From sequence record LC546831.1: 64,000 nucleotides of DNA; one strand, 5' to 3'. Each line of letters opens with the position of its first letter. Position 1 is the stretch's first letter. Below the pieces are notes generated by a model. It was not told the origin of the DNA. It ran no database searches and saw only the letters and a program-made list of their open reading frames with translations. The stretch comes from a plasmid. The translations under genes were made by a program, and so were the position numbers. Below are positions 342 through 27,313 of this stretch, piece after piece.

Positions 342-593
342 CTACATAGGCTAAGTATATGCCGATGCATAGCATATGTATAGGACAAGGATATGCAGAT
401 GGCTGGCATATGGATATGTTTGCCCTATCCTTGCCTTCTTCTTTTTCAGCCAAGATCCGTTTTCTGCTAAAGCCGGATGCTAACTATCTAAGGTGAAGGT
501 GACTATGTGTTTACGCTGGCAGCCAAGCAACCTGAATGGTTTATCGTGATGTGCTCCGGCATACGTAAATCCTACACCGGAGCTAAGGAGTGA

Positions 594-1526
594 TTACTCC
601 TGAAGGTGCAGCTCCTTCAGATTCGTTTCAAAGTAATCAACATAAATTCGCTCATTTTTGGGCTTCATTATCAGCTGAATACCGTTGGGAACGGGCGGAC
701 ATGAGGCCCGGTAGGCGAACATCTCATCCTGGATATTCCGGAGCGTATAACCCAGTTGCTCTTCTTCTGCCCTTCCGGACACCCTGATGCCGGATAATTC
801 CTTCTCAACGTACTTTTTCAGCTTCTCGCTTCTTTTCATACTGCTGCGATTATCCAGAAACTGAAGCAAGAAATAGCGGATGACCGGCAGTGTGAACACC
901 ACATAGAAGAGGATCTCATTCAGCCCGGATTTCATGGAGATGCCGTAAACAAGCATCGCGACAGGCGAGACAATAAAAGCTGAAAGATAAAACACGTGCA
1001 GCACCTTCCTGAGCGATTTGTCCCAGCCGAGGTTTTTTCCGTGGCACAGGAGCGCCATTACGGCCAGCGGCGCGTCATACACCTTACTGACGTACCATCC
1101 CTCTTCGCCAAATCGCTTTCGTGCTTTTTCCGGACTGTCCCTGAAATAGGCAGCTGCCCGGATGATGTCATCCCGTGGGATCTCCTCCACCTTCAGGTCA
1201 TTGCGCCGGATGCCCAGTACCCGGCAGTCGTACATTTCCTGGATTGAGGCTGCCTTCCTGCGCAGTGCCGCGATGTGTCCGCTGATGATAATGTTAAAAG
1301 TAAGCACCAGGAGTCCATACAACCCCAGCAGTGAAGACAGCAGCTCTGAATCGACAAAGCCCCGGCTCCGGTTGTATACGGTAACGAGCGAAAGCAGGAG
1401 CGGCACGATGATGCTGAAGATAAAATTCAGCCTGTTCCAGTTTTTTACCCTGTCGTAAACACGGGCCTGCGCATACAGTAAATCCAGGTTTTCTCTGGTC
1501 GACTGGTTCGTGTAAATGGCATTCAT
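594..1526 (-). CDS. Multi-pass membrane protein (4-5 predicted TM helices). Candidate CBASS S-4TM-type effector
   Basis: Hydrophobic helices FIFSIIVPLLLSLVTVY, LLGLYGLLVLTFNIIISG, VLHVFYLSAFIVSPVAMLVYGI, ILFYVVFTLPVIRYFLLQF. Start is 3 nt downstream of the nucleotidyltransferase gene on the same strand. Confidence 0.45.
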   Translation of the reverse strand: MNAIYTNQSTRENLDLLYAQARVYDRVKNWNRLNFIFSIIVPLLLSLVTVYNRSRGFVDSELLSSLLGLYGLLVLTFNIIISGHIAALRRKAASIQEMYDCRVLGIRRNDLKVEEIPRDDIIRAAAYFRDSPEKARKRFGEEGWYVSKVYDAPLAVMALLCHGKNLGWDKSLRKVLHVFYLSAFIVSPVAMLVYGISMKSGLNEILFYVVFTLPVIRYFLLQFLDNRSSMKRSEKLKKYVEKELSGIRVSGRAEEEQLGYTLRNIQDEMFAYRASCPPVPNGIQLIMKPKNERIYVDYFETNLKELHLQE

Positions 1527-1529
1527 GGT

Positions 1530-2525
1530 TCACCCGTAAACAGGAAATAACGGCCCGAACACATCGCGCCATTTATTGATGGATTTTTCATACTCTTTGT
1601 TCTCCTCAAACCATCTCGCCTCCGATACCTTCTGCGCATCGAGATAACATCTGTCCGAAATCGCCTTACGCGCCTCGGCTGAAAGAGAGTTGATATCTCC
1701 CTGTATGCCTTTGGGATCGTTGACGGAGAACTGTACGTACAGACCGAGATGGCGGAAAAGCGCTTCCAGCTCCATATCGACAAACGATGAGCAGGCTGAC
1801 CTGCCGGCGTAATAGTCCAGAATCAGCGTCTCCAGCAGGTAGGAACTCATGGAGGGCATCGTCGGTCGCCGCTGCCAGTACTTGACTGCTCTGATGACAT
1901 TCAGCACATTGCCGTCATTCTGCACATTGACAGTTGTGACTCTGTCCCTGTCTTTGCGGGGGTCGGTAAACTTCCAGTGGCCTTTGCCGTCGGGGATCAG
2001 ATAGTAAGTCCGTCCAAAGGCATCTTCGCTGGTAATAAAGCAGGGTACGATGTCAAAATTCCAGTCCTTGCTGACCAGTTTCAGCGTGACGGCTTCCTGG
2101 TTACGCCTGATATCAGCTTGGGCGTATTGGGCAATGTCCTGCAGGCGGTTTTTAAAGGCATTCAGAATTCTGACGGAGCAGATAGTGTCAGCTCCGGAAT
2201 GCCGATACCCGTGCAGGCGCGACCCCTCGCCGGAAGAGGTCAGAGTGATCCGGTCACTCAGAACGTTATAGGTGGCACTCTGCGCGGATAAGCCGAACAT
2301 CAGATCGATATCGTCCAGAGGACGGATTTTGGTTCTTCTGGCAAAGGATCCAAAGGCAATATGGATCGCTGGATAACTCACCGGAAATTTATCGTCCTTC
2401 TCAAAATCATTCATCTTACCGATAAGCCAGTCGCGACTTGCACGCGCGTCATCGGTATCTGCCTTTTTGAGATTCACGGTATCTTTCATAAATTCGTTAA
2501 AGGCAGCTATTACTGTGGTCGCCAT
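1530..2525 (-). CDS. Nucleotidyltransferase of the cGAS/DncV-like (CD-NTase/SMODS) type
   Basis: GSFARRTKIRPLDDIDLMF (G-S...D-x-D) followed by a third acidic residue in NFDIVPCF, then KGHWKFTDP. About 330 aa, operonic with a TM protein. Confidence 0.5.
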   Translation of the reverse strand: MATTVIAAFNEFMKDTVNLKKADTDDARASRDWLIGKMNDFEKDDKFPVSYPAIHIAFGSFARRTKIRPLDDIDLMFGLSAQSATYNVLSDRITLTSSGEGSRLHGYRHSGADTICSVRILNAFKNRLQDIAQYAQADIRRNQEAVTLKLVSKDWNFDIVPCFITSEDAFGRTYYLIPDGKGHWKFTDPRKDRDRVTTVNVQNDGNVLNVIRAVKYWQRRPTMPSMSSYLLETLILDYYAGRSACSSFVDMELEALFRHLGLYVQFSVNDPKGIQGDINSLSAEARKAISDRCYLDAQKVSEARWFEENKEYEKSINKWRDVFGPLFPVYG

Positions 2526-3539
2526 GTTCAGTCCTTTAATTATTTATTGCAAAAGGCGCAGGGCTCTGACGTACATCTGCACACTCCAGTGCCCTGAAAG
2601 GGTCGAGACAGTTTATTCTTAGTTCCGCAAGTTCACTACCGTCTCGCTTTCTACAAGGCCTTGTAATTTACATGGGAAATAAGAGCCTCGCTCTTTTATT
2701 GAATTTAATGCAAGTGTTTTCAATTTTTAATGCCAAAAAAGCAATAATGCGATTATGTTTAAAATCAATCATTAGTATTGCATTATCAGCACAAATCCTT
2801 CTGCATTCCTCCTGAGATCCGAAAACTCCCAGAGACGGATCTTCCTGAACTCCTCCGGCGTACAGCTGCACGGAAACACAAGATGTAGCGGTGTTTACAG
2901 CTGATGATGACGCTATATGTTGTGTTCTCCCCCTGCCCCGTGACCCGGCGTGCGGCAGCGGATTTTGGTGCTTTGCTTATTTCCCCGGCGTGGTACACTT
3001 CCGGAAAGTTGTTATATGCCAGAAAGTCGGATCACACAGGAAAGGTGAATAGGTAATTTAATGGCGTGGTTATATGGCTGCTTATTATCATCTGGGTGAT
3101 TTTTACTGTATGGAACTGCGAGGGCGATCATCGTCACTGGCGTGATTGCGGGATGTGATAATTTCAATGGGGGTTTATGTGCAAGTCATGTGATATTGAC
3201 GCTAATTATTTTCACTCGGTTTATTGTGTGTATGACCATCTCGCAACTACTCACCACGTTTTATGGCTGCGCGATTCATCGAGAATTCCAAGCGGTTTGC
3301 TATCGAGGAATCTCCTTTCTTCTGCAGGTGATGTATTGGCCATATGGAATGCCCCTCCAGGAAAAGGATGGGCGCTTCGTATCCACGATAATGAAGCCAT
3401 TGACGAACGGCCAGACCCGCAGCGGGGGGATTTTGTCGATCTCAGTGATGAGGCAACAAGGTTTCAGATTCTTTTAGACCTTGGATGTTGACGTTTATAC
3501 AAGAGCTGGGCGGGATTTTGCACTTAATAAGGAACATAC

Positions 3540-4250
3540 ATGGGTGACTGGTTTATTGCCACCGAGGGCGTGAAAATCGTCAAAGACAGTCCAGGCCTGT
3601 GGCCGCAGATCATTACGGGGTTTGCGGCGTTGGGCGGCGTGTACCTGGCCCACTACTTAACCCGCTGGCGTGAGGAAAGAACGGCGGCGGCGAAGCAGGC
3701 CAGTGAGCGTCTTTTTATCGCCACGGAGCTGGTCTTTTTGCTGGAGCAGTTTGCCGAGGGTTGTGCCCAGGTAGCCACGGACCAGGGCGAGCCCGATCAG
3801 CAAGGTGAGTATTCCCCAGCGGTAAAGGCGCCTGAGCTGACTGTCCTGGATGTTTCGGGGGACTGGCGCACGCTTCCTCCGCTGATCATGTACCGGATTC
3901 GTGAGCTGCCCATACTGCAGAGCGAAGCCCGTCGGGATATTGCTGCAGCTGCAGAGCATAGTTGGGCTCCCTATCACAAAGAAGGTTTTCAGGAGCGTCA
4001 GTACCAGTATGCGCGCCTCGGGCTGAAGGCCCTGCTCCTCTCACGGCGCCTCCGCAAACTGGCCGGTCTGCCCGACACCCGCCTTGATGCGACGGAATGG
4101 TCTGCCCAGCCTGTCCTCTGGAAGGCGTGGCGGGAGGAGCGTAACAGACGTTCGGTTCAGGCAAGGCTGCGGCGGCAAACTATCGCACAGATGAATGTTG
4201 CCCTGCAGCAGAGCATAAAAAATAACAGCCTGTCGGGGAGGACGCCGTGA
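3540..4250 (+). CDS. Hypothetical protein with an N-terminal TM helix. Overlaps the start of the recombinase gene
   Basis: ORF with high-GC codon usage. 4-nt overlap with the downstream recombinase. Confidence 0.5.
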   Translation: MGDWFIATEGVKIVKDSPGLWPQIITGFAALGGVYLAHYLTRWREERTAAAKQASERLFIATELVFLLEQFAEGCAQVATDQGEPDQQGEYSPAVKAPELTVLDVSGDWRTLPPLIMYRIRELPILQSEARRDIAAAAEHSWAPYHKEGFQERQYQYARLGLKALLLSRRLRKLAGLPDTRLDATEWSAQPVLWKAWREERNRRSVQARLRRQTIAQMNVALQQSIKNNSLSGRTP

Positions 4251-5020
4251 ATTTGCCAGCCCAGTATACCCAGCCCCCGGCTTTACAGTTACCAGTGGCG
4301 ATTGATTATCCTGCTGCGCTTGCCCTGCGTCAGATGGCTCTTGTCCATGACGAACTGCCCAAATACCTGCTGGCGCCGGAGATCAGCGCCCTGCTCCACT
4401 ACGTACCGGACTTGCACCGTAAACTGTTGCTGGCCACCCTGTGGAACAGCGGCGCCCGGATCAACGAGGCACTGGCGCTGACGCGCGAGAATTTCTCGCT
4501 GGCGCCGCCCTACCCGTTCGTGCAGCTGGCCACCCTCAAGCAGCGCACGGAAAAGGCGACCCGCAGCGCCGGCCGGTTGCCGGCGGCCAGCACGCCGCCG
4601 CGCGTGGTGCCGCTGTCCGATCCGCAGTACGTGGCGCAGCTGCAGATGATGGTGGCCACGCTGAAAATTCCGCTCGAGCGCCGCAACGCGCGCACCGGCC
4701 GGATGGAAAAGGCGCGGCTGTGGACGATCACCGATCGGACGGTGCGCAGCTGGCTGGCGGAGGCGGTGGACGCCGCGGCGCGCGACGGGGTTACGTTCTC
4801 GGTGCCCGTCACTCCGCACACCTTCCGCCACAGCTACGCGATGCACATGCTGTATGCCGGCATTCCGCTCAAGGTACTGCAGGCGCTGATGGGGCACAAG
4901 TCGATCAGTTCGACGGAGGTCTACACCAAAGTCTTTGCGCTGGATGTGGCAGCGCGGCACCGGGTACAGTTCTCGATGCAGGAGACTGACGCGGTGGCAA
5001 TGCTTAAAGGATTGAACTGA
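4247..5020 (+). CDS. Short tyrosine site-specific recombinase (resolvase-like, ResD/Xer-type, no arm-binding domain)
   Basis: C-terminal HTFRHSYAMHMLYAGIPLKVLQALMGHKSISSTEVYTKV (R-H-R-Y catalytic region). 257 aa. Confidence 0.8.
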   Translation: MNLPAQYTQPPALQLPVAIDYPAALALRQMALVHDELPKYLLAPEISALLHYVPDLHRKLLLATLWNSGARINEALALTRENFSLAPPYPFVQLATLKQRTEKATRSAGRLPAASTPPRVVPLSDPQYVAQLQMMVATLKIPLERRNARTGRMEKARLWTITDRTVRSWLAEAVDAAARDGVTFSVPVTPHTFRHSYAMHMLYAGIPLKVLQALMGHKSISSTEVYTKVFALDVAARHRVQFSMQETDAVAMLKGLN

Positions 5021-5181
5021 ATAGCGTCGATTTTTAGTTTCATGCGGTTTGTGGCGATTTGCACCCGTTTAGCCTCAATTGCTAAGCGCACCACGGGAAA
5101 AAGAGGAATGGAGCTGGTTGCTACCGCCTTTCGTCGGAGGTATCGAATTTTCCGCAATTAGTGATAGTGTCGAGATAATCA

Positions 5182-5199
5182 GGTTTCGCATGCGAAATT
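5182..5199. promoter_or_regulatory. Operator-like palindrome copy 1 (GGTTTCGCATGCGAAATT, one arm mismatch), 5 nt upstream of the 5204 ORF
   Basis: Direct read of an inverted repeat. Confidence 0.6.
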
Positions 5200-5203
5200 T
5201 ATT

Positions 5204-5413
5204 ATGAAGGAGATGATGATGATTCAACCCCATCTTGGTCGTTATTCAACGGTCTGTTTGGTCTGTGCCATAATTAACGGATGTACCGTAGCTTACAATG
5301 GATTTTTCCGCTCAGGAGAGATGTCCATAGTTCTGAACTCACTTTTGGCTCTATCTTGTGTTGCATTGGTGTATGTCGGTATTGGCTTGGAAAAGGTGAG
5401 CAAATCGAATTGA
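5204..5413 (+). CDS. Small membrane protein (69 aa, 2 TM)
   Basis: RBS-like AAGGAG region before the start. Hydrophobic segments. Palindrome just upstream. Confidence 0.45.
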   Translation: MKEMMMIQPHLGRYSTVCLVCAIINGCTVAYNGFFRSGEMSIVLNSLLALSCVALVYVGIGLEKVSKSN

Positions 5414-5417
5414 TGAC

Positions 5418-5433
5418 GTTTCGCATGCGAAAC
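5418..5433. promoter_or_regulatory. Operator-like palindrome copy 2, GTTTCGCATGCGAAAC (perfect)
   Basis: Direct read. Confidence 0.65.
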
Positions 5434-5479
5434 TTTTCTAAATGCATTTGGTAGTGGAATTTACAAGGAGGATGTACGA

Positions 5480-5668
5480 ATGGAGAGATTACATTCAGCG
5501 GTGTTTTCTGTACTGCTATTGATTATGGCATGTTTGTTTTTTGGTCTGTATTGGTACGGCGATGATAGTCTGCGCCCTTCCCTGATAACGATAGTATTCG
5601 CCGTCATCAGTCTCACTGGCGGAGTTCTAACCATGATCAGCTATGCGTTGTCTGCAAGGAAAAACTAG
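5480..5668 (+). CDS. Small membrane protein (62 aa, 2 TM)
   Basis: RBS AAGGAGG before the ATG. Hydrophobic. Confidence 0.45.
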   Translation: MERLHSAVFSVLLLIMACLFFGLYWYGDDSLRPSLITIVFAVISLTGGVLTMISYALSARKN

Positions 5669-5683
5669 TTTCGCATGCGAAAC
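5668..5683. promoter_or_regulatory. Operator-like palindrome copy 3 (perfect)
   Basis: Direct read. Confidence 0.65.
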
Positions 5684-5821
5684 CTCTATTGTGACGAGAA
5701 AGCTATGTTGGAGTATCCTGCTCCTTTACTGGTTTAATGACTAACGCGCTGCGCTTGTTAACTGCGGCACGCCTGCGAAATGATTTCGCCAGGCTTTTCC
5801 GCAGTATCCCCTCTTCCTAAA

Positions 5822-5837
5822 GTTTCGCATGCGAAAT
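5822..5837. promoter_or_regulatory. Operator-like palindrome copy 4 (GTTTCGCATGCGAAAT)
   Basis: Direct read. Confidence 0.6.
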
Positions 5838-5958
5838 TCCTCCATATTTTTAAATATCTTTATTGATATTTGATTTATTGTGAGCTATATTCTCTGTACT
5901 GATAGTGGAAAGCCACTATCGACTCTCTGGCGCAAAGCCATACTCAAAGGAGAATGTC

Positions 5959-6300
5959 ATGCAACACAATGCACTCGTTGGTCGACTGATCACTCAGCCT
6001 GTCTTTGTAGTCAAAGACGACACACGGTTCTGCCGTTTCACCGTAGCTGAACTGAGAAAACGCAGTGGTAACCAAACCAAAATCGAATTCACCGCTTTTG
6101 ATGCCGTAGCCTCGCATATTGCCGATAAGTGCCTGGTCGGCGATACCGTTTCCATCAATTTCACCATCACCAATGCTGTCTATGAGTCGGATGGTGTTAA
6201 TCATCATGGCTATCGGTTTCAGGCGACGTTGGTTGAATTCGTTGCCGCCGGCAAACAGCGCCGTGAGCAAGTGAGTCAACGTATTGGACAAGGTCGTTAA
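5959..6300 (+). CDS. SSB-like OB-fold single-stranded DNA-binding protein (short plasmid type). Start taken at MQHNAL, which has an AAGGAG RBS
   Basis: VGRLITQPVFVVKDDTRFCRFTVAE...EFTAFDAVASHIADKCLVGDTVSINFTI...HGYRFQATLVEF mirrors the SSB OB-fold pattern (VGNLG.DPE.R....G..V..F.LA...). Confidence 0.5.
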   Translation: MQHNALVGRLITQPVFVVKDDTRFCRFTVAELRKRSGNQTKIEFTAFDAVASHIADKCLVGDTVSINFTITNAVYESDGVNHHGYRFQATLVEFVAAGKQRREQVSQRIGQGR

Positions 6301-6307
6301 CTTCCCG

Positions 6308-6323
6308 GTTTCGCATGCGAAAC
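6308..6323. promoter_or_regulatory. Operator-like palindrome copy 5 (perfect)
   Basis: Direct read. Confidence 0.65.
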
Positions 6324-6349
6324 TGACCTAACTACCAGAGGTCGAGTTT

Positions 6350-6616
6350 ATGTCGATTTATATGGAATTACGCTGCGAACTCCGAGGGGAGTTACCAATT
6401 AACGAGTCAAAATGTTGGTCAGAAGTTGACCGCAGCCTGTGGGCAATGGCATTAAACACCCATGAGTCTACAGAACAGACCACAACAGAACTTTTAAGCA
6501 AGGCCACCCATGCCGGTTGGCAAAGTATTAATGGTGATTGGATATGCCCTGGCTGCCAAGAAAATCTGGCATTAACAGAGCAGATGCAGGCAGTCGCCGA
6601 AAGGCATGACCAATAA
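6350..6616 (+). CDS. Hypothetical 88-aa protein with a CxxC pair (CPGC)
   Basis: ORF behind the palindrome. Confidence 0.4.
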   Translation: MSIYMELRCELRGELPINESKCWSEVDRSLWAMALNTHESTEQTTTELLSKATHAGWQSINGDWICPGCQENLALTEQMQAVAERHDQ

Positions 6617-6624
6617 CAGTCTTA

Positions 6625-6640
6625 GTTTCGCATGCGAAAC
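6625..6640. promoter_or_regulatory. Operator-like palindrome copy 6 (perfect), 20 nt upstream of the parA ATG
   Basis: Direct read. Confidence 0.65.
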
Positions 6641-6660
6641 TTTTGAAGAGGATTTCTAAG

Positions 6661-7503
6661 ATGACAGCGAAAGTAATCACGATTTGTTCACAAAAAGGTG
6701 GCATCGGTAAGACCTTTGCCACAACGGAAATAGCGGCAGAGCTGCAGCGTCGCAGCTATCGGACATGTGCAGTTGATGGGGATTGGATGAGCGCGCTGAC
6801 GTCGCGCCAATTCCCCGATGGCCTGCCGCTGGAAATCGATGCCAATCCTTCAGGGCGCGTTCTTACGCCGGGCACCGCACACGTCAATCGCATCTATGGG
6901 GAAGAACCCTTTGAGCCGCTGCGGCTGCATGATGGCCGTGGATTTATGGGGGCGACGGAACAGCTGAACGATATCAACAACCGCAACTCCGATTGTATCT
7001 ACGATTTCCGCGCCCGCTTCGCGGAGCTGCGCGACCAATTTGACTATATCCTGATTGACTCGTCGCCAGTCTGGTCAAACTTGCTGATGGCCAATCACCT
7101 GGTCGCCGATTATCTGTTGATCCCAACGCTGTTGGAAAAAACATCCCGCCTCGGCGCCGAAAAACACCTGCGCACGTTGAAGAAAATCAAGGAGCGGTAT
7201 AACCCAGACCTCAAACTGCTGGGGATCGTGGTTACTCAGGCGACGGTGGCCAACTATAAGAAAGAAGTGCTGGGTGGTCGTTATGCGAGTGTCGATACCG
7301 AGAATCTCAAGATGTTGCTGGAGATCCTGGAAGAGAATGGTTTCGGGCCGGAGCATTTGCTGGAGATTATTCCCTATGTTCAAACCAAGGTCCGTGAAGC
7401 CATTGAGTTGAACTACACCATGAAAGAATACGCGCCGGACAGCCCATTGGTGGCTCGTTATGACGCGCTGGTTGACACTATCATTGCACGGACAGGGGGC
7501 TGA
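6661..7503 (+). CDS. parA: ParA/Soj-family partition ATPase
   Basis: Deviant Walker A CSQKGGIGKT. About 280 aa. Followed by a ParB gene. Confidence 0.85.
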   Translation: MTAKVITICSQKGGIGKTFATTEIAAELQRRSYRTCAVDGDWMSALTSRQFPDGLPLEIDANPSGRVLTPGTAHVNRIYGEEPFEPLRLHDGRGFMGATEQLNDINNRNSDCIYDFRARFAELRDQFDYILIDSSPVWSNLLMANHLVADYLLIPTLLEKTSRLGAEKHLRTLKKIKERYNPDLKLLGIVVTQATVANYKKEVLGGRYASVDTENLKMLLEILEENGFGPEHLLEIIPYVQTKVREAIELNYTMKEYAPDSPLVARYDALVDTIIARTGG

Positions 7504-7507
7504 CACG

Positions 7508-8644
7508 ATGGCCAAAAATTTCAAAGCCCAAATGCGTGAAAAGCGCGAAAAGGCCGCTTCACCGCAAACGCAGGTTGAAACTCCCGCAGTCGAACGCGAA
7601 CTGGCGTTACCGCGTAATGACCTGAACCAGAACGAGCTGAAGGTCAACCGGGCTGAGCACGAGGACCCTGCGGGTCAGATAATTCGTGTTCCAATCGATG
7701 ATGTCTACGCTATTGACCAGGTTCGCCCCGAAGACGACTTTGATGATGAAGTTATCGACGGGATGAAACAAACCTACGGCGACTTCGGCATTTTATCACC
7801 TCCTCGTTGTTTCCCCCGCGATAAGCGCGGATATCGCATTTGGTTGGGTGAAACGCGAGTGCGTTCTGCAAAGAAAAAAGGGGATTTGTTCATCGACATT
7901 TATGTCGGCCTGCCGCCTGAAAATGAGAAGAAGCGCATCTATGGGCAGCTGATCGAAAATCTTCACCAGTCTGGGTTAAAACCGTTAGCCACAGCAATAC
8001 AGCTGCAGGCACTTCGCGATGTGCATGGTGAAACTCAGGAGTCGATGTCTCGTATTTTGGGTAAACCCAAAACGTTCATCAGTAAACACATGCGGTTGAT
8101 TGATGCGCCGGCGCCGGTCATCGCTCTGCTGAAAGAAAAGGTGACCAAAGATGTCGACCTGGTCTATACGCTGTGCCAAATCAACGATATCAGTCCAGAG
8201 AGCGTTGATAAACTGGCCAAACTGGTTCGGGATGGGAAGCTCACGCGCCAGGGAGCGATTAAAGAGCTGAACGTCCTGAAGGGCAAGCCGCCAAAGAACC
8301 CGCCGCCTCCGGCGCCATCAACCAACTCCGGGACAGAAACTCAGGAAGAGAACCGTAACAAAGATGTATTGACGGAACATCCGGGAACTTCGACGAATCA
8401 AACCGGCAACACCGCCGGCGAACAGCAGAATGCCGGCAACGAACAGACCCATAAGACGCAACCGCTACAGGGCGAGTCTAACGTCAAAATCACTCGTGTC
8501 ATGGTGAAGTTTGAGGGGGGGGAAGGCTATTTGCTGACTGACCGGATACCCGAGGAATATGGCCAGGTTTGGATAGCGCTGCCGTTAGGTGAACTGTGCA
8601 TCGATGCCGCAGAAATATCTATCCTGGGGATCAAAGAGGTATAG
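7508..8644 (+). CDS. parB: ParB-family partition/DNA-binding protein
   Basis: ParB N-terminal domain with GETRVRSA (GxxRxxA). HTH SMSRILGKPKTFISKHMRLID. Downstream of parA. Confidence 0.8.
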   Translation: MAKNFKAQMREKREKAASPQTQVETPAVERELALPRNDLNQNELKVNRAEHEDPAGQIIRVPIDDVYAIDQVRPEDDFDDEVIDGMKQTYGDFGILSPPRCFPRDKRGYRIWLGETRVRSAKKKGDLFIDIYVGLPPENEKKRIYGQLIENLHQSGLKPLATAIQLQALRDVHGETQESMSRILGKPKTFISKHMRLIDAPAPVIALLKEKVTKDVDLVYTLCQINDISPESVDKLAKLVRDGKLTRQGAIKELNVLKGKPPKNPPPPAPSTNSGTETQEENRNKDVLTEHPGTSTNQTGNTAGEQQNAGNEQTHKTQPLQGESNVKITRVMVKFEGGEGYLLTDRIPEEYGQVWIALPLGELCIDAAEISILGIKEV

Positions 8645-9082
8645 ATGAGTAAAGCGCTGTTTGCAGACCTGGCGGAGCAGTTTTTATCCGTCGCAGTCAA
8701 AACCTGGGTGATACGTTCAGAATTACCGGCCGCTGCTGCGGCCGATGTTTTGCTTACCACTGCAATCCAGCAGGGCTTCCTGGAAGACCGTGGACGCCCT
8801 TTATTGGGTAATACACTCAATGAGTGGGGGAAGAACAAGAAATACCCGCGATGGGCCATACAGAGCGCTATGGCTCTCCTTTTGGCTGATGGGTGGAAAC
8901 CCGTCACCCATCCTGAATGGGCTGCCTATGCGGCTATACACGTTCAGTCTAAAAAGGGGGGATCGCTCACCCAACTCCTCGATGTTTTGCCGGAAGGGCT
9001 GGACATTGATGTGGCGGCAGGTTGGATCTGCGCGGCGACGGAAGACGCTGCCAGATATCATGATAGGAAAAAGCTGCGATGA
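8645..9082 (+). CDS. Hypothetical protein (145 aa)
   Basis: ORF contiguous with parB. Confidence 0.4.
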   Translation: MSKALFADLAEQFLSVAVKTWVIRSELPAAAAADVLLTTAIQQGFLEDRGRPLLGNTLNEWGKNKKYPRWAIQSAMALLLADGWKPVTHPEWAAYAAIHVQSKKGGSLTQLLDVLPEGLDIDVAAGWICAATEDAARYHDRKKLR

Positions 9083-9399
9083 CGTTTTCTGATATTGAGG
9101 CCGCACTGTCCAGTACCGGGCGGCGTGCTTACGCCGGCGTCATTTTAGCTTTCCTGCTTGATGCTCACGATCGTGGTGCTGGTCTGGTCGAGAAGCACAC
9201 TGTGGTGGAGAATGTCGGGATCACCGACACCAATGTTTCGGCGGTGGCGCGGCGCCTGGAGGAACAAGGGATAATCGAGATCCTCTACTGGGATACAAAA
9301 TCCGAGAGTCCCACATGGTCCAGCCTACGGAACGGTGCTTGGTCAGCCCCCGGATATCGTCTGCTGCCAGCTGTACTGCAGTTGTATCGTCGTTGCTGA
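9079..9399 (+). CDS. Small winged-helix-like DNA-binding protein (106 aa)
   Basis: NVGITDTNVSAVARRLEEQGII resembles a wHTH. 4-nt overlap with the upstream ORF. Confidence 0.4.
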   Translation: MTFSDIEAALSSTGRRAYAGVILAFLLDAHDRGAGLVEKHTVVENVGITDTNVSAVARRLEEQGIIEILYWDTKSESPTWSSLRNGAWSAPGYRLLPAVLQLYRRC

Positions 9400-9407
9400 A
9401 TGACAAG

Positions 9408-9423
9408 GTTTCGCATGCGAAAC
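9408..9423. promoter_or_regulatory. Operator-like palindrome copy 7 (perfect)
   Basis: Direct read. Confidence 0.65.
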
Positions 9424-9457: not shown

Positions 9458-10786
9458 ATGAAACTGGTAACGAAGAAATCACCCAGAGGTCGACTGTTCG
9501 ATGAGTTATCGCCTGAACAGGCGACGGCGGTAGGCAACGTTTGTGGCAAAGGACGCGTTACTTCGCTGGTTGAAAAACAGTTGGCTGAAGAGGTGCTGAG
9601 AAGCATGCGTGATAATGATCTTTGGCTGTCTTGCGGTTGCCGCACGACTGCAGAAGATCGGCCACTTAACACCGTCTGTAACCGCGACGGATCTTTGTTC
9701 CTGGTGAATTTCAGCGGAGAGCACAGCTCGGATTGTCCGCTGTATCGTTCAAAGCGGGGTGATGATGGCACAGGGCAGGGCGGCGGGCGCCGAACAGCCG
9801 GCGCCGTGCGCATTGATTTTCGCTCTTTCTTGCCGCGAGACGATAATGGGGCTCGTATCGCTGGGCCGGCGAAGACAAACAGTCATGGCAAAGACAAAAC
9901 AAGTCGGCGCCGTATACCCGCGTTGGCACGCCTGCTGCTGACCTTGATCGAGGCCGCTGGGCTTAATCGCATCGAACCGGTTTACCCTCAGCCAGGACAA
10001 ACCAAAACGCAGGCGCTCAATGCGGTGAAGTTGGTTACCGAGATGGAGCACTTTGCCCAGGGTCGTCCTCTGAGCGAGATTGTATTCTTCGACCCCTGGC
10101 TGAAACAAGAACGGCTCGATGCGCGCATGCGTGAACTTGAAAACGAGGGTAAAGCCTGGCCTGCAGGGAGAGCACGAACTTTCTACCAGATCCTGTTCTC
10201 TGAGCAGGTGACACAAGATGAGGTCGTTTTCAAAAGTAAGTTCGGTGAGACAATATTCCGGCCCGAAAAGCGAGTGAGCATCAACGGCGAGGTTGATGGT
10301 CATCGGGAGAAATACTGGGTGATCCTGATGTACCGGCGCAATGATGCTGGTACGGTCGTTTGCCGCGATGCTTATGCGCATGCGCTCTTTGATTACGCCT
10401 GCCCGGTTCCGGTCGACAGTAACCTTGAACGTGAAACCATTAACTCCATCATTACTGGGGGGAAGTGGCTGCAGAGTTCAGGCTATGAGTTATCCCTTAA
10501 CAAACCGCTGTTCGATATCACTGTGGACCTTGATGGCGAGGAGCGTTTTGTTTTGCCTGACTTCCTTTTGACTGTCAAACACCCTGGGCGGGTGCGAACG
10601 TCGGAGCTTGTTATCGAGACGATGGGGTATACTGATGATGACTACGTCGAACGCAAAGCGAATCAGCATAAGGGTATGAGGGAATTGGGGTTGTTGCTGA
10701 AAGATCCCCCTTATTGGCCGGCACCGGCCGATAAGCGTGATGCATTTGCACGGTATTTGTATGGGCGAATTTCGCACTTAAAATAG
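9458..10786 (+). CDS. Conserved hypothetical protein (442 aa)
   Basis: Long ORF with an RBS, behind palindrome copy 7. Confidence 0.5.
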   Translation: MKLVTKKSPRGRLFDELSPEQATAVGNVCGKGRVTSLVEKQLAEEVLRSMRDNDLWLSCGCRTTAEDRPLNTVCNRDGSLFLVNFSGEHSSDCPLYRSKRGDDGTGQGGGRRTAGAVRIDFRSFLPRDDNGARIAGPAKTNSHGKDKTSRRRIPALARLLLTLIEAAGLNRIEPVYPQPGQTKTQALNAVKLVTEMEHFAQGRPLSEIVFFDPWLKQERLDARMRELENEGKAWPAGRARTFYQILFSEQVTQDEVVFKSKFGETIFRPEKRVSINGEVDGHREKYWVILMYRRNDAGTVVCRDAYAHALFDYACPVPVDSNLERETINSIITGGKWLQSSGYELSLNKPLFDITVDLDGEERFVLPDFLLTVKHPGRVRTSELVIETMGYTDDDYVERKANQHKGMRELGLLLKDPPYWPAPADKRDAFARYLYGRISHLK

Positions 10787-19237: not shown

Positions 19238-19681
19238 GCTGGCGCTTCCTTCGGTGGCAGGCCGCAAGCGTCCAGCCATCAAGCCCTACTCGACTAATCG
19301 CCCGCCGGCGGGCGCCAAGTCTCGCCGAACTCCTTCGGGTTTCGGGCCGGCCGGCTAGGGTCTGAAAGCCAGGGTCAACAACCTGCGCTTGCAGCCGGCT
19401 ATGCCGGCGCCACTTTCACTGTTCGCCGCTGTGCCGGCGATCGCTAAGGGCGCCCCGGCGTTTCGCCGGGTCGGGTATGTTCCTGCTCATCTCACCGTTG
19501 GTTATCTCTCATCGGCCTCACGCGGCCGCTTTTGTAGCACCGTCGCCCGGTTGCCCGCAAGGGAGGATAAATCGCCGCAAGCGGCGCCCTTGCTGTCCCC
19601 CGTTCGCCGTCGCTACTTCCGCTTTTTCGCCGCGCAAGGTTCCGACGAGAGATAGATAACCCACCCAGCAAGGAGAACAGC
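19238..19681 (+). repeat. Structured leading-region repeat copy 2 (candidate Frpo/ssi-type ssDNA promoter)
   Basis: About 445 bp, near-identical to copies 3 and 4. Dense inverted repeats, e.g. GGTTATCTCTCATCGG pairing with CCGACGAGAGATAGATAACC. Ends at the ATG of a + strand ORF. Confidence 0.55.
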
Positions 19682-20128
19682 ATGAACACACAGAACGTCA
19701 ACATCAACGTCAACACCGCCACGAAGGAACACTCTGGGAGATATGAAACGGCGGGATTGTGCGAACCAGAGGCCCCGGAGCCTTGGGAAAAGCCCGGCGT
19801 GCAATATCCTGCTGCCGTGCGCGCGTTGGAAATGGAGTTTATTTACTTAGACGACCTGAATGAACTGTATGCGCAAAGCAGCACGTCACCCGACGAGCTG
19901 GAGCAGGCTCTCTATGTGATTTTCGGCCGAATGACAGAGCTTGTCCAAAGCTGCGGGGCTGATTATAAGCAGCCTGACAAGCCGAGGGTTTCATACGAGA
20001 TGGCCAAATACTGGATCAGGGGGCAACGGGTAGCGCAGCAATGTTTCGGGGAAATCGGTCAGCGCGCCTGGGAGCATGCACGTTACAGACTGGCGTTCGA
20101 GTTGGCGGTGGAGTATTCGTACAACTGA
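19682..20128 (+). CDS. Hypothetical protein (148 aa). N-terminus MNTQNVNINVNTATKEHSGRY is encoded within the repeat
   Basis: ORF with RBS AAGGAG. Shares DKPRV.Y...W...C.E.G motif with the 23757 ORF. Confidence 0.5.
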   Translation: MNTQNVNINVNTATKEHSGRYETAGLCEPEAPEPWEKPGVQYPAAVRALEMEFIYLDDLNELYAQSSTSPDELEQALYVIFGRMTELVQSCGADYKQPDKPRVSYEMAKYWIRGQRVAQQCFGEIGQRAWEHARYRLAFELAVEYSYN

Positions 20129-23299: not shown

Positions 23300-23756
23300 T
23301 GAGCTTCCTCCGGTGGCCGGCCGCAAGCGTCCAGCCATCGAGCCCTACTCGACTAGCCGCCCGCGCGCGGGCGCCAAGTCTCACCGAACCCGCGTAGCGG
23401 TTTCGGGCCTGCCGGCTAAGGTCTGAAAGCCAACATCAACAACACCAAGGTCAACAGCATGCGCTTGCTGCCGGCGATGCCGGCGCCGCTTTAACTGTTC
23501 GTCGCCTGGCGACGAACGTTGAGGACGCCCCGGCGTTTCGCCGTGTCGGGTGTGTTCCTGCTCATCTCACCGGTGGTTATCTCTCATCGGCCCTTACGCG
23601 GCCGCTTTTGTAGCACCGTCGCCCGCGTGCCCGCAAGGGTGAAATGCACGCCGCAAGCGGCGCCCTTGCGTTCCCCCGTTCGCCGTCGCTACGTCAGCTT
23701 TTCGCCGCGCAAGGTTCCGACGAGAGATAAATCAACCACCGAAGAGGGATACCAGC
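23300..23756 (+). repeat. Structured leading-region repeat copy 3 (candidate ssDNA promoter)
   Basis: Aligns with copies 2 and 4 along its whole length. Confidence 0.55.
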
Positions 23757-24179
23757 ATGAACACACAAAACGTCAACGTCAAAACCGCCACGAAGGAACG
23801 CTCTGAAAGATATGGGTGGACGGAAGCCTATGGTTGGGGCTTGTCGCCTGCTGAACGCATTTCTGAGCAACAGGGCTATCTGAAAGAGCTGCGCCATTTT
23901 AACGATCAGTGGAAACCGGAAAGAGCGCAGCGGCTGATGGAACTGCTGATGACCATCGCCGATAACGTGCTGGACTCGGTGACGAACTGGAAAGACGTGG
24001 GCGCTTTTGGTGATAAACCCCGCGTTCCTTACATGATCGTTCGTTGCTGGCTGGACGCGATGGCGTTGGCGCCAGAGATGTGCGGCGAAATGGGCAGCAA
24101 CGCCGTGGCGTATGTGCTCGAAAAATTGGAGGGGAAATTTGAGTTTGAATGCGCGATGACCCGGATGGATCACCCATAA
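23757..24179 (+). CDS. Hypothetical protein (140 aa), N-terminus MNTQNVNVKTATKERSERY. Paralog of the 19682 ORF
   Basis: Shared N-terminus and DKPRVPY motif. Confidence 0.5.
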   Translation: MNTQNVNVKTATKERSERYGWTEAYGWGLSPAERISEQQGYLKELRHFNDQWKPERAQRLMELLMTIADNVLDSVTNWKDVGAFGDKPRVPYMIVRCWLDAMALAPEMCGEMGSNAVAYVLEKLEGKFEFECAMTRMDHP

Positions 24180-26580: not shown

Positions 26581-27028
26581 CTGGCGCTTCCTTCGGTGGC
26601 CGGTCGCAAGCGCCCAGCCATCAAGCCCTACTCGACTAGCCGCCCGCGCGCGGTCGCCAAGTCTCGCCGAACCCCTTCGGGTTTCGGGCCAGCCGGCTAG
26701 GGTCTGAAAGCCAACATCAAGGTCAACCCCCTACGCTTGCAGCCGGCGATGCCGGCGCCGCTTTAACTGTTCGTTGCCTGGCAACGAACGCTAAGGACGC
26801 CCCGGCTTGTCGCCGTGTCGGGTGCGTACCTGCTCATATTGCCGGTGGCTATCTCTCATCGGCCCTTACGCGGCCGCTTTTGTAGCACCGTCGCCCGGTT
26901 GCCCGCAAGGGTGAAATGCACGCCGCAAGCGGCGCCCTTGCTGTCCCCCGTTCGCCGTCGCTACGTCAGCTTTTTGCCGCGCAAGGTTCCGACGAGAGAT
27001 AGATAACCCACCCAGGAAGGAGAACAGC
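26581..27028 (+). repeat. Structured leading-region repeat copy 4 (candidate ssDNA promoter)
   Basis: Near-identical to copies 2 and 3. Confidence 0.55.
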
Positions 27029-27313
27029 ATGAACACACGAAACGTCAAAGTCCAAACCGCCACGAAGGAACACTCTGAAAGATACGGGGAAAAGATCATC
27101 GCTGATTTGGATTCGTTGCTGCAGAAAACAAGCCGGGCGCTGTTTAAGTTTCAGAAAAATGCGAACAGAAGTGCACTCGGCATTCAAACAGCTGCGCTGA
27201 GCCAGGAACTTGAAATATTGGTGAAGGGAGTACCGGCCATCCCGGATATTCAGGAAAGAGTGAATAAGGTGGCCGAACTGCTGCACATTATGGAAGATTT
27301 TTCGGCCCAATAA
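27029..27313 (+). CDS. Hypothetical protein (94 aa), N-terminus MNTRNVKVQTATKEHSERY
   Basis: N-terminus encoded within the repeat. Rest unrelated to the other two. Confidence 0.5.
   Translation: MNTRNVKVQTATKEHSERYGEKIIADLDSLLQKTSRALFKFQKNANRSALGIQTAALSQELEILVKGVPAIPDIQERVNKVAELLHIMEDFSAQ

Follow-up and report, generated by a model that had tools for sequence, protein, structure and literature searches.

A palindromic repeat at the parA-parB module of a plasmid as predicted centromere and operator of a KorB-type ParB

Introduction

Plasmid RK2 carries 12 operators, placed plasmid-wide at promoters for replication, transfer and maintenance. Its KorB protein binds the centromere and is also a repressor; it works as a CTP-dependent sliding clamp (PMC11790492). 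In IncC plasmids, ParB binds sites with the core TTTCACATGTGAAA in gel-shift assays; these sites occur in 14 copies over the backbone and play a role in incompatibility (PMC10954446). The ParB of the IncP-9 plasmid NAH7 has been shown by gel shift to bind TTTCTCGCATGCGAGAAA, which is present in six intergenic copies (PMC12421886). Here, we analyze 64,000 nucleotides of plasmid DNA (record LC546831.1; hereafter, the window) in which a 16-bp palindrome, GTTTCGCATGCGAAAC, is repeated around a parA-parB gene pair. In our view, these palindromes most likely serve the only ParA-ParB partition system of the plasmid as its parS/operator sites. They probably form a dispersed centromere that also autoregulates the par operon.

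Results

A pattern search of the window for GTTTCGCATGCGAAAC, allowing up to 3 mismatches, returned seven sites where 0.36 were expected by chance, and none of 100 shuffles gave as many as seven. This bears out the copy number given in an earlier note, which had been made from the window's sequence alone. That note had also counted five perfect copies, correctly; the other two finish in AAAT and retain the 14-bp core TTTCGCATGCGAAA, which is perfect in all seven sites. Six of its start positions were right, and the first site begins at 5183 rather than 5182. The motif search that it had called for, run on the 64-kb window, confined the palindromes to 5183-9423; with up to 5 mismatches permitted, the rest of the window yielded only chance-like matches with 4-5 mismatches. 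By our own arithmetic, seven randomly placed sites would all land within 4.24 kb of a 64-kb stretch with a probability of about 6e-7. A comparison of the flanks showed that conservation around the palindromes ends at 16 bp. The sites are as follows.

5183-5198, no strand: predicted ParB site 1, GTTTCGCATGCGAAAT, with a perfect 14-bp core; directly 5' of small membrane open reading frame (ORF) 1
5418-5433: predicted ParB site 2, a perfect 16-mer; 4 nt past the small ORF 1 stop and 46 nt ahead of small ORF 2
5668-5683: predicted ParB site 3, perfect; begins on the final base of the stop codon of small ORF 2
5822-5837: predicted ParB site 4, finishing in AAAT; 25 bp 5' of the -35 element of the par-operon promoter
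6308-6323: predicted ParB site 5, perfect; separates the SSB-like gene from orf88
6625-6640: predicted ParB site 6, perfect; in the 5' leader, 20 nt before the parA ATG
9408-9423: predicted ParB site 7, perfect; 8 nt past the orf106 stop, at the 3' boundary of the par module

The IncC core TTTCACATGTGAAA is one symmetric base pair apart from TTTCGCATGCGAAA. IncC ParB, however, needs flanking AAAC/GTTT arms that make up a 22-bp site, as opposed to the 16-bp conservation seen here. With G/C at symmetric positions 5 and 10 of the core and with unconserved flanks, the sites in the window fall outside the IncC/IncA parS class. The NAH7 palindrome, parS_NAH (PMC12421886), shares the CGCATGCG centre and TTTC/GAAA arms, but at 18 bp is one base longer per half-site. 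The RK2 operator is different, namely TTTAGCSGCTAAA. Chromosomal parS, TGTTTCACGTGAAACA, is likewise a 16-bp palindrome with GTTTC/GAAAC arms, and the earlier note had drawn attention to this likeness. It proved to be a real family resemblance, although the arms are 4 bp apart in chromosomal parS and 6 bp apart here. The system described here is plasmid-borne, unlike chromosomal ParB/Spo0J; to our knowledge, Enterobacterales have no chromosomal ParABS.

The genes of the par module lie within the array of sites.

6661-7503, + strand: parA, Walker-type ATPase, 280 aa
7508-8644, + strand: parB, a ParB of KorB architecture and the predicted binder of the palindromes
8645-9082, + strand: orf145, an accessory gene present in every enterobacterial homologue of the par module
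9079-9399, + strand: orf106, a conserved accessory winged-helix protein

ParA matches AAA_31/CbiA and contains the motif KGGIGKT. Because its ATPase domain begins at residue 4 of 280, it lacks the N-terminal DNA-binding extension of ParA proteins of the P1 or F type. No further ParA is annotated in NZ_CP027301, a 96%-identical relative. The parB gene starts 5 nt past the end of parA, and its product matches KorB, HTH_ParB and ParB_N in Pfam. The motifs QVRP (71-74), GETRVRS (114-120) and ENLHQ (150-154) align to those that bind nucleotide in Noc and Spo0J; in 29 homologues, the key residues of all three are invariant. A KorB C-domain was not detected directly in this ParB by Pfam, and a profile comparison gave a weak match to 1igq (E 0.29). 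Structure comparison settled these weak sequence matches: the AlphaFold model superposes on three solved structures. In structure, the protein is thus a ParB of the KorB type, with CTP-type N-domain motifs, a KorB-type DNA-binding domain and an SH3-like C-domain; the likeness to KorB that had been suggested at first sight is supported. A Walker-type ParA beside ParB, an N-domain with the three motifs and a repeated palindrome in cis near the operon are all present, as in ParABS systems with a CTP-type ParB.

The same three-domain build and a short ParA partner are found in the IncC-KorB pair of RK2/RP4, which acts with OB operators (PMC11790492). The parA-parB-053 operon of IncC/IncA plasmids (R55, pAR060302; PMC10954446) encodes a ParB with ParB_N and KorB domains, 28% identical to the one studied here, together with a short ParA and a small DNA-binding third gene behind parB. 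NAH7 has a four-gene operon (parA-parB-parR-parC) with KorB-like logic, and its ParB is 22% identical. Chromosomal ParB/Spo0J proteins have a homologous N-domain and helix-turn-helix, and Noc and Spo0J are the best PDB sequence matches, but the C-domain here is the SH3-like domain of KorB. The recognition helix reads FVSTHLSL in IncC ParB and F/W-(I/V)-SKH in the present family. Judging from these alignments, site and ParB co-vary between the two, and Lys193 of this helix (SK here, ST in IncC) may be the residue that switches specificity at the G/A base pair.

The palindromes stay close to the par genes. Conjugative plasmids of Serratia marcescens with the typing MOBF/MPF_F match this region at 95-96% identity, and alignment to one of them, NZ_CP027301, shows that the window spans most of the plasmid (maintenance region, leading region, tra genes and traI); on this sequence evidence, we assign the window to an F-like conjugative S. 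marcescens plasmid. NZ_CP027301, searched in all but its first 2 kb, has nine sites, all located from the recombinase gene to the end of the par operon. Citrobacter P4 (100 kb minus about 560 bp) has six in 4.4 kb around the par module. Of the three sites in Yersinia p2_50K (49 kb), two are at the module and the third lies about 3 kb upstream, on the far side of an IS91 insertion. No palindrome was found at replication, transfer or leading-region genes in the window or in these three near-complete relatives. By comparison, the 14 IncC sites are scattered through the backbone, and the NAH7 copies are dispersed to transfer genes, which ParB activates. Since the sites remain at the par module, unlike those of RK2, RA3, NAH7 and IncC, which extend to other operons, we regard them as a local dispersed centromere. 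The module shares its local arrangement with IncC, where one site stands between promoter and parA and another beyond the operon; in pAR060302, CTTTCACATGTGAAAG is located 48 nt upstream of parA, with a second copy past the operon. Chromosomal systems also have several sites around parAB and, in some members, a site within parB.

The remaining genes along the array, and the transcription signals predicted between them, are listed below.

4247-5020, + strand: tyrosine recombinase
5204-5413, + strand: small ORF 1, predicted two-helix membrane protein, 69 aa if begun at 5204; translation more likely starts at the ATG at 5219, which follows AAGGAG
5480-5668, + strand: small ORF 2, predicted two-helix membrane protein, 62 aa
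5771-5798, + strand: strong intrinsic-terminator-like hairpin, the inner stem being followed by TTTT and enclosed by a longer one at 5761-5805 (-24.5 kcal/mol, z -4.78)
5863-5891, + strand: predicted par-operon promoter, TTGATA-17-TATATT, starting 25 bp past site 5822
5959-6300, + strand: SSB-like gene, 113 aa, with a weak Pfam SSB match; it heads the operon in Serratia plasmids
6350-6616, + strand: orf88
9458-10786, + strand: orf442

No other sigma-70-like promoter was found on the + strand between 4900 and 9700, and a looser search beside every site gave weak and inconsistent matches except for the TTGATA promoter. The terminator-like hairpin is located between site 5668 and site 5822. Because this is the sole promoter found and the hairpin separates sites 3 and 4, the layout suggests two transcription units: a small-ORF unit with sites 1-3, and a par operon that runs from the 5863 promoter through the SSB-like gene to orf106. 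In the par operon, site 4 lies 5' of the promoter, sites 5 and 6 occupy intergenic gaps, and site 7 follows the last stop.

The earlier note had placed each site 5-80 nt before a + strand start, in promoter positions, and had offered a KorB-style global operator network with one site per promoter as an alternative to a centromere. The spacing holds for five of the seven sites: 5-20 nt to the ORF at 5204/5219, 46 nt to the ORF at 5480, 26 nt to orf88, 20 nt to parA at 6661 and 34 nt to orf442. It fails for site 5668, behind which the terminator-like hairpin comes next and no credible downstream gene was found, and for site 5822, after which the SSB-like gene does not start until 121 nt later, at 5959. 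The genes flanking the palindromes are all on the + strand, and in such a packed one-strand array any intergenic element looks as if it were just upstream of a start. Sites 6308, 6625 and 9408 are 20-34 nt before a start codon, which leaves room for a ribosome-binding site but is too short for a promoter; only site 5822 adjoins a recognizable one.

A network in which ParB separately switches the small membrane ORFs, the SSB-like gene, orf88, parA and orf442, with partition as a secondary function, therefore seems unlikely to us. It would suit the KorB architecture of ParB, the presence of a site ahead of every gene in the array, and the strong, conserved promoter next to site 5822, and sites of this sort are used for transcriptional control by KorB, RA3 KorB, IncC ParB and NAH7 ParB alike (PMC11790492, PMC7414963, PMC10954446, PMC12421886). 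Against it stand the single promoter, the lack of room at three sites, and the absence, in the window and in three near-complete relatives, of sites at rep, tra and leading-region promoters; the operators of the KorB family are spread over the plasmid at promoters for replication, transfer and maintenance. In addition, some sites in the family lie within the parB coding sequence and some between convergent genes. Nor does the last site behave as a promoter element of the 442-aa ORF, as had been supposed. In the Yersinia, Klebsiella, Providencia and Citrobacter plasmids described below, the last core copy is 0-8 nt past the final gene of the par operon whichever gene comes next, and across the family the orf106 stop is followed, at 0-12 nt, by the site and then by orf442, a RES gene, umuD or IS3 alike. 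The centromere-like clustering that the same note had recognized is supported by the seven copies in 4.2 kb.

The association of the palindrome with ParB extends well beyond the window. Serratia plasmids whose ParB is 67-69% identical have 7, 7 and at least 2 sites. These plasmids, from S. plymuthica, S. entomophila and S. proteamaculans, have different backbones, among them one of type MOBP/MPF_I, and keep the 16-mer unaltered and similarly arranged. The module parA-parB-orf145-orf106, here with a ParB of 40-47% identity, is also present in four more enterobacterial plasmids, namely Yersinia hibernica p2_50K, Klebsiella pneumoniae pKCTC2242 (IncFIB/IncHI1B), a Providencia plasmid and a Citrobacter IncFIC plasmid. 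All four have the same core, written ATTTCGCATGCGAAAT, 15-17 nt before parA, and three of the four have a copy within parB. A ParB homologue is present in about 800 Klebsiella plasmid records.

We also scanned public genomes with the 14-mer and fetched 8 kb around each of 120 arbitrary loci among the matches listed. The 14-mer copies in these matches are mostly single and at chance level, and become useful after the loci have been screened for ParB genes. Outside Serratia, twelve of the 120 loci encode a ParB-family protein within the 8 kb; they include Sulfurovum, Sulfurimonadaceae, an epsilonproteobacterial symbiont, Rhodovulum, Trinickia, Nitrosovibrio and Rhodocyclaceae. At three Campylobacterota loci, sites occur 14-43 nt before parA and within parB, and no homologue of orf145 or orf106 was found there. 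Overall, a site lies 15-48 nt upstream of parA in 14 of 14 par loci examined. ParB is thus the common denominator of the palindrome-bearing par loci, and its proposed role as binder of the palindromes is likely in view of this linkage across diverged loci.

Copies within parB leave a trace in the protein. In frame, xTT TCG CAT GCG AAA encodes [V/I]-S-H-A-K, and a [V/I/L]SHAK motif occurs in one or two copies in a low-complexity linker of 68 of 120 ParB homologues. The in-frame parB copies read ISHAKS or VSHAKS, and some homologues have two about 20 residues apart (loci L129 6637, L130 6784 and L131 6781; proteins P0035-P0120). We take the [V/I]SHAK peptide to be the DNA site made visible through the protein sequence. 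The motif is absent from ParB of the Serratia clade, the window included. In four distant ParBs (L025, L112, L052 and L013), VSHAK stands near the N-terminus.

The winged-helix protein at 9079-9399 had been named as an alternative binder, and its fold assignment is confident. Under such a scheme, orf106 or orf145 would bind the palindromes as operon repressor, and ParB would use another centromere. Both genes are kept in every enterobacterial homologue of the module, and related systems have a small DNA-binding third gene, namely the KorA-like ParR of NAH7 and 053 of IncC. However, Campylobacterota and other distant loci have the palindrome with parA and parB only, no second repeated palindrome fit for ParB was seen in the family loci scanned, and the tested relatives bind near-identical palindromes through ParB (PMC10954446, PMC12421886). 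We therefore judge this explanation very improbable. The accessory genes also set the module apart from its relatives: IncC has 053 in place of orf145 and the winged-helix orf106, the third gene of NAH7 is KorA-like rather than a winged helix, and RK2 has KorA and TrbA as clamp-locking partners, whereas no KorA homologue was found here. Neither orf145 nor orf106 matched KorA, orf106 being a generic winged helix, though a protein with the function of KorA may still be present. For orf145, orf88 and orf442, neither a family nor a PDB match was obtained. Binding by a host transcription factor is disfavored by the linkage of the palindrome to parB across phyla, and we know of none with this recognition sequence.

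A last possibility is that the palindromes act at the RNA level, as stabilizing or terminating intercistronic hairpins, or are REP-like filler, in either case unrelated to ParB. In five of seven cases the site follows the preceding stop codon by 0-8 nt, two sites are followed by a T-run, and four were listed as terminator-like in a scan. Yet a single palindrome folds weakly (-4.3 kcal/mol), and loop and stem are both invariant across diverged plasmids and phyla, without co-variation. One site is 5' of the promoter, outside the par transcript, and copies also occur within coding sequence. A REP-like host element, which the earlier note had named as a case that would refute its reading, is further disfavored by the restriction of the sites to par modules, with no spread through any genome; among the first 120 loci listed, no taxon predominates and the copies are mostly single. 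We regard this as the least probable of the explanations considered, and a very remote one.

The region before the first gene of the operon is conserved as well. Wherever this upstream DNA is intact, family members share a TTGATA -35 element, a TATAxT-like -10 element and the leader behind them. A palindrome is always found 17-82 bp upstream of the -35 element, and another always directly before parA. The leader contains a short GC hairpin, followed by GGCGAAA(A/C)GCC and ACTCACAGGAG, ahead of the first gene (compared in window 5892-5958, L124 5560-5655, L125 5190-5267, L128 2050-2120 and L131 4920-5000). In Klebsiella and Citrobacter, its versions encode a 28-aa ORF that ends in NISHAKS and overlaps the parA-proximal site.

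Discussion

We propose that dimers of the KorB-type ParB (7508-8644) recognize each palindrome through the helix-turn-helix domain. The dimers would then close as CTP-dependent clamps and slide to adjacent DNA, such that seven loading sites over 4.2 kb could give rise to a single ParB-coated partition complex across the par operon. ParA (6661-7503) would move this complex, thereby delivering a plasmid to each daughter cell. Binding at the same sites probably represses the par-operon promoter at 5863-5891, given that one site is 25 bp 5' of the -35 element, two sites are in the transcribed leader, and ParA has no DNA-binding domain of its own. The analysis establishes the presence and statistics of the sites, how they are conserved, how they are linked to ParB genes, and which domains make up ParB and ParA; ParB binding, CTP clamping, segregation and repression are inferred. 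For site binding, CTP binding and stabilization of the replicon, the support is indirect and comes from conservation, from the co-variation with IncC and from the gel shifts published for relatives.

Several points weigh against this proposal. The GETRVRS motif deviates from the canonical GERRxRA by the change of one arginine to threonine. The Serratia clade has 7-9 sites compared with 3-6 in its relatives, and this surplus is unaccounted for. The distance from site to -35 element ranges from 17 to 82 bp across the family, which makes a fixed-geometry operator unlikely and leaves repression to be deduced; such variable spacing fits a loading-and-sliding clamp (PMC11790492) better. Finally, the NAH7 ParB activates and does not repress (PMC12421886), so any regulation by ParB might be of either sign.

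No new mechanism is implied, since the layout fits KorB, IncC ParB and NAH7 ParB and the kind of system is well known; most likely, this is an ordinary kind of plasmid-inheritance system. The site sequence of this widespread module, on the other hand, appears to be undescribed in the full texts that we searched: the exact core had no mention in 8 million of them, a collection that excludes subscription journals, and a literature search for parS of Klebsiella virulence plasmids returned only an unrelated type Ib system on pESBL. We tentatively put forward a broader idea, in which we have somewhat less than even confidence, that TTTCGCATGCGAAA defines an undescribed multi-phylum centromere class of one KorB-type ParB clade. 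The core would be shared without change by F-like and pADAP-like plasmids of Serratia, by IncFIB/IncHI1B plasmids of Klebsiella in their hundreds, by plasmids of Yersinia, Providencia, Citrobacter and Pantoea, and by elements of Campylobacterota and other proteobacteria, often with the site in parB as [V/I]SHAK codons. If so, par-mediated incompatibility might arise among otherwise unrelated plasmids, or the system might be hijacked as SGI1 does to IncC. The present analysis provides a concrete predicted centromere/operator sequence for a par module common to Serratia conjugative plasmids and many clinically important Klebsiella plasmids. Incompatibility between these plasmids based on par becomes predictable, and the 14-mer or the [V/I]SHAK peptide can serve as a simple marker for finding this par system.

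A number of further observations were made along the way. The upstream palindromes each precede a small hydrophobic ORF of 52-69 aa (window 5042-5668; L001 20284-21246). NZ_CP027301 has four such ORFs and two additional sites; the window has a deletion of about 0.5 kb here, with two intact small ORFs and a remnant at 5042-5161. Conversely, window 479-4284 (about 3.8 kb), with a 236-aa ORF at 3540-4250, is missing from NZ_CP027301. In Citrobacter P4, two more sites lie 60 bp apart at the 3' end of a RES-family gene behind the par operon (L133 28585 and 28645), one within the gene and one between convergent genes.

A second ParB-like gene of 692 aa is located at about 15.0-17.1 kb (homologue at L001 30619-32697), in the leading region upstream of psiB-psiA. 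It has no ParA partner and no palindrome nearby. As a binder of the palindromes it is an unlikely candidate, since distant loci pair the site with parA-parB genes. Cross-matches to NZ_CP027301 also point to three direct repeats in the leading region, each about 510 bp long and 84-89% similar to one another (19239-19745, 23303-23816 and 26581-27088). Single-strand promoter and initiation elements are known from the leading regions of F-like plasmids, and these repeats may be elements of that kind.

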